The notes under the pieces are model-generated. The model ran no database searches. It saw only the letters and a list, made by a program, of their open reading frames with translations, and was not told the origin of the DNA. Made by a program: the position numbers and the translations under genes. From the NCBI RefSeq assembly GCF_003334765.1, contig NZ_QOWT01000007.1: 64,000 bases of DNA; one strand, 5' to 3'. The stretch is from Escherichia coli (GTDB lineage Bacteria > Pseudomonadota > Gammaproteobacteria > Enterobacterales > Enterobacteriaceae). This document shows, piece by piece, positions 1,430 through 56,701 of the stretch. How positions within the stretch are numbered: position 1 is the first letter of the stretch; every line of letters begins with the position of its first letter.

Positions 1430-1527
1430 TATTGCTGACACGGTTTTCCCCTCACCCTAACCCTCTCCCCAGAGGGGCGAGGGGACCGACCGAGCGCCTT
1501 TTTGACTCTGTACACGGTTAACACTTT

Positions 1528-1563
1528 GCCGGATGCGGCGTGAACGCCTGATCCGGCCTACGG
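1528..1563. repeat. REP (repetitive extragenic palindromic) element in pstA-pstB spacer
   Basis: gccggatgcggcgtgaacgcctgatccggcctacgg matches the E. coli REP consensus; preceded by a GC-rich imperfect palindrome at about 1446-1485. Confidence 0.6.
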
Positions 1564-1572
1564 TAAGCCTGA

Positions 1573-2385
<813 letters not shown>

Positions 2386-23150: not shown

Positions 23151-23171
23151 GATGTTCCTGTTGCTTTGTGT

Positions 23172-23199
23172 GGCGGATGCGCGGTGCTTATCCGCCCTA
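23172..23199. repeat. REP-like palindrome in mnmE-yidC spacer
   Basis: ggcggatgcgcggtgcttatccgccctac resembles one REP unit. Confidence 0.45.
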
Positions 23200-23232
23200 C
23201 GAAAAGAAAAAAGGCGGTCAACTGACCGCCCT
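23200..23232 (-). terminator. Rho-independent terminator downstream of yidC
   Basis: ggcggtca / tgaccgcc inverted repeat; on minus strand followed by a U-run (plus-strand A-run 23202-23212). Confidence 0.6.
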
Positions 23233-23255
23233 TATTTTAGCGAAAACTCACCGAA

Positions 23256-26248: not shown

Positions 26249-27652
26249 GTGTCACTTTCGCTTTGGCAGCAGTGTCTTGCCCGATTGCAGGATGAGTTAC
26301 CAGCCACAGAATTCAGTATGTGGATACGCCCATTGCAGGCGGAACTGAGCGATAACACGCTGGCCCTGTACGCGCCAAACCGTTTTGTCCTCGATTGGGT
26401 ACGGGACAAGTACCTTAATAATATCAATGGACTGCTAACCAGTTTCTGCGGAGCGGATGCCCCACAGCTGCGTTTTGAAGTCGGCACCAAACCGGTGACG
26501 CAAACGCCACAAGCGGCAGTGACGAGCAACGTCGCGGCCCCTGCACAGGTGGCGCAAACGCAGCCGCAACGTGCTGCGCCTTCTACGCGCTCAGGTTGGG
26601 ATAACGTCCCGGCCCCGGCAGAACCGACCTATCGTTCTAACGTAAACGTCAAACACACGTTTGATAACTTCGTTGAAGGTAAATCTAACCAACTGGCGCG
26701 CGCGGCGGCTCGCCAGGTGGCGGATAACCCTGGCGGTGCCTATAACCCGTTGTTCCTTTATGGCGGCACGGGTCTGGGTAAAACTCACCTGCTGCATGCG
26801 GTGGGTAACGGCATTATGGCGCGCAAGCCGAATGCCAAAGTGGTTTATATGCACTCCGAGCGCTTTGTTCAGGACATGGTTAAAGCCCTGCAAAACAACG
26901 CGATCGAAGAGTTTAAACGCTACTACCGTTCCGTAGATGCACTGCTGATCGACGATATTCAGTTTTTTGCTAATAAAGAACGATCTCAGGAAGAGTTTTT
27001 CCACACCTTCAACGCCCTGCTGGAAGGTAATCAACAGATCATTCTCACCTCGGATCGCTATCCGAAAGAGATCAACGGCGTTGAGGATCGTTTGAAATCC
27101 CGCTTCGGTTGGGGACTGACTGTGGCGATCGAACCGCCAGAGCTGGAAACCCGTGTGGCGATCCTGATGAAAAAGGCCGACGAAAACGACATTCGTTTGC
27201 CGGGCGAAGTGGCGTTCTTTATCGCCAAGCGTCTACGATCTAACGTACGTGAGCTGGAAGGGGCGCTGAACCGCGTCATTGCCAATGCCAACTTTACCGG
27301 ACGGGCGATCACCATCGACTTCGTGCGTGAGGCGCTGCGCGACTTGCTGGCATTGCAGGAAAAACTGGTCACCATCGACAATATTCAGAAGACGGTGGCG
27401 GAGTACTACAAGATCAAAGTCGCGGATCTCCTTTCCAAGCGTCGATCCCGCTCGGTGGCGCGTCCGCGCCAGATGGCGATGGCGCTGGCGAAAGAGCTGA
27501 CTAACCACAGTCTGCCGGAGATTGGCGATGCGTTTGGTGGCCGTGACCACACGACGGTGCTTCATGCCTGCCGTAAGATCGAGCAGTTGCGTGAAGAGAG
27601 CCACGATATCAAAGAAGATTTTTCAAATTTAATCAGAACATTGTCATCGTAA
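26249..27652 (+). CDS. dnaA: chromosomal replication initiator DnaA
   Basis: 467-aa product from GTG at 26249 ([14 protein letters not shown]...); AAA+ Walker [12 protein letters not shown]; track start 26237 is an upstream extension. Confidence 0.95.
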
Positions 27653-28757: not shown

Positions 28758-32273
<3,516 letters not shown>

Positions 32274-32293
32274 TGGCGCTAACCATGCGAGCG

Positions 32294-32393
32294 TGCCTGA
32301 TGCGCTACGCTTATCAGGCCTACGAAAATCTTGCAATGTATTGAATTTTCATGATTTTGTAGGCCGGATAAGGCGTTCACGCCGCATCCGGCA
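32294..32393. repeat. BIME: two inverted REP units flanking an AT-rich spacer
   Basis: tgcctgatgcgctacgcttatcaggcctac (32294-32323) and gtaggccggataaggcgttcacgccgcatccggca (32359-32393) in opposite orientation. Confidence 0.6.
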
Positions 32394-32405
32394 AGAAGCT
32401 ATAAG

Positions 32406-32439
32406 AAAAGGGCGGAGATCATCTCCGCCCTTTTTATTT
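32406..32439 (+). terminator. Rho-independent terminator downstream of gyrB
   Basis: Perfect palindrome gggcggagat c atctccgccc (32410-32430) followed by tttttattt. Confidence 0.75.
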
Positions 32440-32512
32440 CTGCAATCCGCAATTATCATCCCGCAAATCTATACTTTTTGGGTCAACACGTAACGCTTTA
32501 CAGGTGATTATC

Positions 32513-32911
32513 ATGGGGCTTTTTGATGAAGTTGTCGGTGCCTTTCTGAAAGGCGATGCGGGGAAATATCAGGCTATTTTAAGTTGGGTTGAGGAGCAGG
32601 GCGGCATTCAGGTGCTGCTGGAAAAACTGCAAAGTGGCGGCTTAGGGGCCATTCTCTCAACCTGGCTGAGTAATCAACAGGGCAATCAATCGGTTAGTGG
32701 CGAGCAACTGGAATCGGCGCTCGGCACAAATGCGGTGTCCGATCTCGGGCAAAAACTTGGCGTGGATACCAGTACAGCTTCCATTTTACTGGCAGAACAA
32801 TTGCCGAAGATTATTGATGCGCTCTCACCGCAAGGTGAAGTGTCACCACAAGCCAATAACGATCTGCTTTCCGCAGGCATGGAACTGCTGAAAGGGAAAC
32901 TCTTCCGCTAA
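32513..32911 (+). CDS. yidB: uncharacterized protein YidB
   Basis: 132-aa product MGLFDEVVGAFLKGD... (track start 32504 is an extension). Confidence 0.8.
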   Translation: MGLFDEVVGAFLKGDAGKYQAILSWVEEQGGIQVLLEKLQSGGLGAILSTWLSNQQGNQSVSGEQLESALGTNAVSDLGQKLGVDTSTASILLAEQLPKIIDALSPQGEVSPQANNDLLSAGMELLKGKLFR

Positions 32912-42455: not shown

Positions 42456-42555
42456 CATCGTAGCCGATGAGGACGCGCCTGATGGGTGTTCTGGCTACCT
42501 GACCTGTCCATTGTGGAAGGTCTTACATTCTCGCTGATTTCAGGAGCTATTGATT

Positions 42556-42969
42556 ATGCGTAACTTTGATTTATCCCCGCTTTACCGTTCTGCTATTGGA
42601 TTTGACCGTTTGTTTAACCACTTAGAAAACAACCAGAGCCAGAGTAATGGCGGCTACCCTCCGTATAACGTTGAACTGGTAGACGAAAACCATTACCGCA
42701 TTGCTATCGCTGTGGCTGGTTTTGCTGAGAGCGAACTGGAAATTACCGCCCAGGATAATCTGCTGGTGGTGAAAGGTGCTCACGCCGACGAACAAAAAGA
42801 GCGCACCTATCTGTACCAGGGCATCGCTGAACGCAACTTTGAACGCAAATTCCAGTTAGCTGAGAACATTCATGTTCGTGGTGCTAACCTGGTAAATGGT
42901 TTGCTGTATATCGATCTCGAACGCGTGATTCCGGAAGCGAAAAAACCGCGCCGTATCGAAATCAACTAA
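42556..42969 (+). CDS. ibpA: small heat-shock protein IbpA
   Basis: 137-aa product [19 protein letters not shown]..., alpha-crystallin domain. Confidence 0.94.
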
Positions 42970-55897: not shown

Positions 55898-56074
55898 TAT
55901 CACGGATGCTTTTATAAAAATAATTAGAATAAGTCACTACGCATTCCCATAAATGCGGGAGAGGAATCTATCACATTGATGAATGTTAGCCAGATATACG
56001 CCAGGAATGGGGAATTGTTTAGCGGCAGAATATGTAAACAAAAGCGGCAATAAATGTTGCCGGGAGAGATGGTA

Positions 56075-56110
56075 GGGCGGATAAGATGCGTCAGCATCGC
56101 ATCCGACACC
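56075..56110. repeat. REP-like palindrome upstream of emrD
   Basis: gcggataagatgcgtcagcatcgcatccgaca resembles a REP unit. Confidence 0.4.
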
Positions 56111-56121
56111 AACCCGCACGC

Positions 56122-56155
56122 TAAATATAAAAGGGGAGCGGTTTCCCGCTCCCCT
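56122..56155 (-). terminator. Rho-independent terminator of tisB
   Basis: ggggagcgg / ccgctcccc hairpin; on minus strand followed by UUUUAUAUUU. Confidence 0.65.
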
Positions 56156-56560: not shown

Positions 56561-56701
56561 TGCACTAAATACGTCAAAATTCGTGCCGAAATTGCGCGTT
56601 CTGCGCGGAACACGTATACTTTCAGTGTTGACATAATACAGTGTGCTTTGCGGTTACCAGCCGCAGGCGACTGACGAAACCTCGCTCCGGCGGGGTTTTT
56701 T
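56561..56701 (+). ncRNA. istR: IstR antitoxin sRNA (IstR-2 about 140 nt; IstR-1 about 75 nt at roughly 56626-56701)
   Basis: Plus-strand terminator hairpin with T-run ending about 56701; candidate -10 tatact at 56615-56620 for the short form; 20-nt segment 56628-56647 complementary to tisAB mRNA region 56370-56389; ends estimated from published sizes. Confidence 0.55.

Follow-up and report, generated by a model that had tools for sequence, protein, structure and literature searches.

A consensus-grade BIME-1 element and a predicted intrinsic terminator downstream of gyrB in Escherichia coli

The repeat block downstream of gyrB and the BIME families

The REPs of E. coli have been described as imperfect palindromes of 30-40 nt with a conserved 5'-foot, GTAG (CTAC on the complement), and mismatched bases within the stem, and have been divided into three types, y, z1 and z2 (Ton-Hoang et al. 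2012, PMC3333891). In the same classification, BIME-1 combines a z1 and a y REP in a single copy around a long, well-conserved L linker that frequently contains an IHF site, and BIME-2 combines z2 and y REPs in tandem arrays with short linkers; the TnpA-REP protein requires both the non-complementary stem bases and the GTAG foot (PMC3333891). Enrichment of gyrase cleavage has been reported for BIME-2 elements and for y REPs, in a study that never mentions BIME-1 (PMC6379681). The spacer between gyrB and yidB has been presented as a representative REP-containing spacer (PMC7967276, Fig. 5B and item 1 of the supplementary list), with the same sequence printed as the one analyzed here. Given that PMC7967276 lists yidB-gyrB as a REP locus, the feature described below, a consensus-grade BIME-1 followed by a standard terminator in E. 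coli K-12, is already known.

The window, that is, the whole stretch of 64,000 nucleotides analyzed here, is base-for-base identical to E. coli K-12 MG1655 (NC_000913.3, reverse strand) between positions 32255 and 32520, an interval that spans gyrB-yidB; a K-12 coordinate is converted by the rule that the window position equals 3909978 minus that coordinate. The initial annotation, made from the sequence alone, held that REPs account for the palindromic structure of this spacer without invoking a gene, and the records agree with it: none of the E. coli records returned, including that of MG1655, annotates a feature between gyrB and yidB. The RefSeq feature table of MG1655 likewise contains no repeat_region entry for the element. 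The coordinates of the individual features are collected in Table 1.

Table 1. Features of the gyrB-yidB region and additional REP sequences, in window coordinates
Feature	Position	Strand	Description
gyrB ORF	29856-32273	+	annotated as gyrB in E. coli records
gyrB stop codon TAA	32271-32273	+	end of the ORF; same in MG1655
z1-type REP (REP A)	32295-32323	+	iREP orientation on the + strand; GCCTGATGCGCTACGCTTATCAGGCCTAC, CTAC at the linker-proximal 3' end (32320-32323)
L linker	32324-32358	.	exactly 35 nt, 23% GC; GAAAATCTTGCAATGTATTGAATTTTCATGATTTT
Predicted IHF site	32334-32346	-	consensus match ATTCAATACATTG, 12/13 to WATCAANNNNTTR
y-type REP (REP B)	32359-32392	-	+ strand reads GTAGGCCGGATAAGGCGTTCACGCCGCATCCGGC; GTAG linker-proximal (32359-32362)
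Predicted intrinsic (Rho-independent) terminator	32406-32439	+	A4, 9-bp GC-rich stem GGGCGGAGA/TCTCCGCCC, loop UCA, then UUUUUAUUU
yidB start ATG	32513	+	gene after gyrB, same strand
y REP	1527-1561		33/34 to the consensus
Inverted degenerate z REP	1562-1592		foot GTAA; 1-nt linker to the y REP
Degenerate REP variant	23171-23240, including terminator-like neighbor		GGCGGAT...ATCCGCC stem, CTAC foot
Degenerate REP variant	56072-56106	-	GGCGGAT...ATCCGCC stem, CTAC foot

The first REP stem begins 21 nt 3' of the gyrB stop codon. The two REPs that follow are oppositely oriented, such that the CTAC foot of REP A and the GTAG foot of REP B both face the linker between them, which includes CAATGTATTGA; a spacer of 13 nt separates the y REP from the terminator. 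These boundaries reproduce the outline given in the initial annotation, namely two inverted REP units around an AT-rich spacer of 35 bp, followed by a 10-bp perfect palindrome with a T-run. No further REP was found between position 32393 and yidB; the element consists of a single z1-L-y unit and shows no tandem repetition.

Both REPs fold well below the level of shuffled sequences. REP A reaches -13.2 kcal/mol (z -4.6), with a 1x1 mismatch between stem segments of 8 bp and 2 bp, and REP B reaches -19.5 kcal/mol (z -4.4), with the 2x2 internal mismatch of the family between segments of 7 bp and 4 bp. The L linker alone has no stable fold (z ~ +0.4). When the 172-nt 3' region is folded as RNA, the energy is -70.9 kcal/mol (z -5.9), and the structure of minimum energy contains one long hairpin, with REP A paired to REP B and the linker at the tip.

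Chance is excluded as the source of the REP matches after gyrB. With up to 2 mismatches allowed, the REP-foot 13-mer TTATCMGGCCTAC has 11 matches in the window against 1.75 expected, a number that none of 100 shuffles reached, and the only two exact matches in the window are those in REP A and REP B. The sequences are, moreover, dispersed in high copy number: a 411-nt query (window 32150-32560) matched a median of at least 40 places per genome and had matches in every one of the 5,426 complete E. coli genomes. Altogether, the units show the features by which REPs are recognized, that is, an imperfect palindrome with a GTAG/CTAC foot, stem mismatches, high-copy dispersal and an extragenic location.

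For the search of the window, blastn-short was used with y, z1 and z2 consensus strings, of which the y string was confirmed by PMC7967276. The y REP after gyrB agrees at 34/34 positions with the E. coli REP consensus GCCGGATGCGGCGTGAACGCCTTATCCGGCCTAC printed in PMC7967276, and its end fits the tail ...CTTATC(C/A)GGCCTAC of the Stern 1984 consensus, the tail being the portion of that consensus compared as quoted in PMC7967276. Profile searches, which the initial annotation had named as the test that could refute it, bear out the REP reading as well. The Rfam naRNA4 profile aligns the y REP to its first hairpin with one difference in the loop (E 1.9e-7), and the Rfam model ES036 (RF02751) matches positions 32316-32358 on the - strand with 44.8 bits, above its gathering score of 37.6; the 43-nt consensus of this model, AAAuUUGUGCAAAUUCAAUAAAUUGCAGGAaAUACGUAGGCCU, equals the L linker plus the GTAGGCC REP foot. 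For the corresponding 43-mer from the linker, the median number of similar places in an E. coli genome is 6, even in a search with the sensitivity of blastn.

Further copies of the element support the family assignment. The BIME-1 copies located 3' of dppA and nagD in other strains align with the gyrB copy without gaps across z1, linker and y, with z1 proximal to the upstream gene, in the same orientation as after gyrB. The z1 REP shows little or no variation between the gyrB copy and those of dppA and nagD, and a linker core, TGCAA..TATTGA.TTT.CA, is conserved in all three. An alignment of ten REPs shows that the y and z types differ by a compensatory change from a G:C to a U:A pair. We assign REP A to the z1 type because it has the short z form, unlike the long z2 form of the naRNA4 consensus, and in accordance with the definition in PMC3333891. 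The order z1-L-y, the profile matches, the consensus match and the paralogous copies together identify the element as BIME-1, and the block after gyrB is almost certainly made up of a canonical BIME-1 and, downstream of it, the intrinsic terminator that closes the gyrB transcription unit. In the older literature, BIME-1 elements appear under the names RIP or RIB element.

Like other BIME-1 elements of E. coli, the gyrB copy consists of z1 and y REPs in inverse orientation, with their feet facing a 35-nt A/T-rich L linker with an IHF-consensus core, and it is present in a single copy at the 3' end of a transcription unit; no structural difference was found, and the copy is of consensus grade. 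With BIME-2, represented by REP325 (naRNA4, Rfam RF02564, 'Y-l-Z2') and built of tandem y-z2 units that gyrase binds and cuts, it shares the y REP but lacks z2, the short S linker and the tandem repetition. Membership in BIME-2 was considered and rejected on these grounds; the total naRNA4 score is 47.1 bits, below the gathering score of 59.5, and the second hairpin of the model is filled by the unrelated terminator.

The match to the IHF consensus within the linker (Table 1) is preceded on the - strand by an A/T-rich tract. Matches of this kind occur 63 times in the 64 kb on both strands (about one per kb), and about 0.02 would be expected in the linker. In the six copies compared (gyrB, a divergent allele of the same locus, dppA, nagD, the E. 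albertii copy and that of 'E. coli E69'), the specified positions of the IHF consensus are invariant, and variation is confined to the N positions and to the single mismatched position. These observations suggest that the linker carries an IHF site, which we regard as predicted.

The predicted terminator and the alleles of the gyrB 3' flank

The palindrome between the BIME and yidB has two arms of 10 nt, at 32410-32419 and 32421-32430, that are 100% complementary, and extends through A4 and T4 to arms of 14 nt (AAAAGGGCGGAGAT / ATCTCCGCCCTTTT); the complete layout of 32406-32439 is AAAA-GGGCGGAGAT-C-ATCTCCGCCC-TTTT-TATTT, in which the T-run TTTTTATTT occupies 32431-32439. The core stem GGGCGGAGA/UCUCCGCCC with the loop UCA has an energy of -16.7 kcal/mol, and the structure with the A:U extension has -23.3 kcal/mol (z -7.2) on the + strand. 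The palindrome is symmetrical, and on the - strand it forms a hairpin of -21.7 kcal/mol followed by UUUUCUUAU. Sequence and conservation together point to the palindrome and its T-run as the structure that terminates gyrB transcription.

With its GC-rich stem of 9 bp, its loop of 3 nt and its U-run (8 of 9 bases), the structure resembles canonical Rho-independent terminators, among them the bidirectional type flanked by A- and T-tracts. Because gyrB and yidB are encoded on one strand, termination in both directions would be relevant only to the antisense transcript that has been reported at this locus. A consensus terminator scan of the window did not list 32406-32439, probably because greedy extension of the stem through A4:T4 and then through a G:T pair consumed the T-run; a terminator in which A-tract and T-run pair can escape simple scanners. 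In the supplementary files examined from a study that mapped 3' ends in E. coli (eLife 62438), a search for gyrB, yidB or their coordinates returned no entry.

Comparison of genomes shows that the BIME is optional in E. coli and that the terminator is conserved. An allele with the BIME, covering at least 80% of the query, is present in 4,625 of the 5,426 E. coli genomes (~85%), and about 710 genomes (~13%), ST131 included (e.g., NZ_CP093011.1), carry a BIME-less allele that has an unrelated 36-nt filler, TTTTTGTTGCTGATAAAATGACTTAGTCGTCAGTCC, in place of the 129 nt between TAATGGC and GGGCGGAG (equivalent to window 32281-32409). This filler had no match in any other locus compared. The filler allele retains the terminator and the yidB leader; its palindrome lies ~43 nt 3' of the stop codon and is the only terminator-like structure there. 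Since ~13% of the E. coli genomes lack the BIME, any function that the element has is non-essential. A third allele (NZ_CP146556.1) has a BIME-1 at the same site with a linker that is only 88% identical, and in one strain (NZ_AP027822.1) an IS200C of ~711 bp with tnpA is inserted directly after the T-run of the terminator, approximately at window position 32438/32439; the insertion spans 580-1295 of the NZ_AP027822.1 locus segment compared. The terminator is kept in every E. coli allele seen.

A wider survey covered about 120 loci in species-representative genomes that were scanned with the GyrB C-terminus. GTAG-tagged REPs within 150 nt of gyrB were found at about 10 of these loci. E. albertii has a BIME-1 and the same terminator at the same site, with a linker resembling that of the NZ_CP146556.1 allele. 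The BIME-1 of 'E. coli E69' is decaying: z1 has an insertion of 4 nt, y has decayed (GTGGGCAGG...), and the REP begins only ~12 nt past the stop codon. In Citrobacter, Pluralibacter, Pseudocitrobacter and Superficieibacter (7 loci), gyrB is directly followed by y/z REP pairs that are built differently, with short linkers and in either orientation; in Citrobacter, yidB is absent and yidA is the next gene after gyrB. At the equivalent place, the two Kluyvera loci have a plain hairpin-plus-T terminator only. From the distribution at this site in E. coli and E. albertii, the presence of BIME-1 looks ancestral to the two species and the filler allele looks derived. As expected of mobile non-autonomous elements, the gyrB 3' flank has been colonized by REPs repeatedly.

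The same comparisons bear on the reading in which the gyrB transcript has its functional end at the REPs, which would act as a terminator or cause a Rho-dependent pause, and in which the 32406-32439 palindrome serves mainly the opposite strand. REPs have been mentioned as terminators or in connection with Rho-dependent termination (PMC3333891, PMC7967276), and both the symmetry of the palindrome and the location of an antisense transcription start site downstream of it would fit such a division of labor. However, no U-run follows either REP (REP A continues with GAAAAUC and REP B with AAGAAGC), the U-tract of the palindrome on the + strand, UUUUUAUUU, is strong and better than the tract on the - strand, and both the BIME-less alleles and the Kluyvera loci make do with the hairpin-plus-T structure. 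We consider this reading unlikely and retain the palindrome as the predicted terminator of gyrB.

The antisense transcript and the Rfam match

An antisense transcription start site with 'considerable expression' has been reported at yidB-gyrB on the + strand of K-12, which is the - strand of the window, for a transcript complementary to the yidB 5'UTR (PMC7967276). Combined with the ES036 match above the gathering score on the same strand, this raises the question of whether the linker encodes the small RNA ES036 (CssrF), antisense to the gyrB 3'UTR. Several observations argue otherwise. The cssrF gene was defined in Shigella flexneri at another locus, dacB/yhbZ; the 43-nt consensus of the model is simply the BIME-1 linker with its REP foot, and the recurrence of the same linker 3' of dppA and nagD indicates a repeat family rather than an orthologous gene. 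By itself the linker does not fold stably, and an antisense RNA initiated near yidB would meet the symmetrical terminator, with its - strand hairpin, before reaching the linker. A scan of the - strand between 32440 and 32520 found no promoter-like site. What the locus shares with RF02751 is thus the sequence match, and it differs in being a repeated linker outside the dacB/yhbZ locus. We rejected the sRNA gene as a candidate and regard the existence of an independently transcribed sRNA orthologous to CssrF here as very improbable; the Rfam match after gyrB is a match to the repeat family.

There is practically no chance that the palindromes belong to a short coding gene, the 66-aa ORF with a GTG start at 32293-32493 (+): the frame is open in a mechanical sense, but it is made of REP, linker and terminator sequence, has no annotated CDS in MG1655 or the other records shown, is for the most part replaced by unrelated sequence in ~710 genomes and consists of DNA that is dispersed through each genome as a repeat, and we discarded it as spurious. 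The BIME-1 and the predicted terminator suffice to explain the GC-rich palindromes after gyrB, without recourse to a new gene, sRNA or regulatory device.

Possible roles of the element and other repeats in the window

The functional steps outlined here are inferred from family membership; the supplementary data of RepRanger contain no entry for gyrB or yidB. Lying upstream of the terminator, the BIME would be transcribed into a gyrB 3'UTR of ~165 nt, in which the REPs may fold into highly stable hairpins, either separately or as a single long one, and impede 3'-to-5' exonucleases. This would protect the upstream gyrB mRNA, and REP hairpins have indeed been cited as stabilizing mRNA (PMC3333891). 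The A-tract/hairpin/T-tract terminator would then stop the transcription of gyrB and, being symmetrical, may also stop the antisense transcript reported at yidB-gyrB. On the DNA, IHF is predicted to bind and bend the L linker, and the REPs may serve as weak binding sites for gyrase and Pol I; binding of IHF, gyrase and Pol I may help to buffer the supercoiling that transcription generates where the unit ends.

The origin of the element is probably to be sought in mobile DNA. It would have arrived as a non-autonomous element by way of RAYT/TnpA-REP, which recognizes a REP with a 5' GTAG; the GTAG foot and the stem mismatch needed by this protein are both present in the gyrB BIME. According to PMC7967276, which attributes the finding to Liang et al. 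(2015), a REP no more than 15 nt from a stop codon lowers protein output. This mechanism of translation control probably does not apply to the gyrB BIME, given that its first REP, starting 21 nt past the stop codon, lies outside that range.

The naturally occurring alleles with and without the BIME offer a ready-made comparison for the effect of BIME-1 on the mRNA of an essential gene. One could speculate, at long odds, that the presence or absence of the BIME-1 tunes the expression of gyrase B or local supercoiling between lineages, through the stability of the gyrB mRNA 3' end or through an IHF- or gyrase-bound insulator beside a gyrase gene, and that the symmetrical terminator acts both ways, keeping the yidB-antisense transcript out of the BIME and gyrB.

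Additional REP sequences occur in the window (Table 1), two of which had been listed in the initial annotation as similar single REP units. The first, placed at 1528-1563, is a REP but not a single one: its y REP adjoins an inverted degenerate z REP, and the pair at 1527-1592 is an atypical BIME. The second, placed at 23172-23199, is a degenerate REP variant (23172-23200) that is weak on sequence score alone (E ~1) and, in the ten-REP alignment, shows a compensatory swap from C:G to G:C. A hairpin-plus-T terminator-like structure of its own follows this variant, and the same combination is seen at 56072-56155, where the other degenerate variant adjoins its own hairpin-plus-T structure.

A different dispersed repeat, CCCCTCACCCTAACCCTCTCCCCAGAGGGGCGAGGGG..., occupies 1436-1500, in the spacer just upstream of the start of pstB, and the REP pair at 1527-1592 lies directly downstream. 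With a median of 14 places in an E. coli genome, this sequence is presumably a Box C-like repeat. Elsewhere in the window, matches at the gathering level of Rfam were obtained for AsdA (antisense to the dnaA mRNA; 26759-26839, -), ROSE_2 (a heat-shock RNA thermometer; 42490-42562, +) and istR (56572-56701, +), all of which are expected in this part of the K-12 chromosome.
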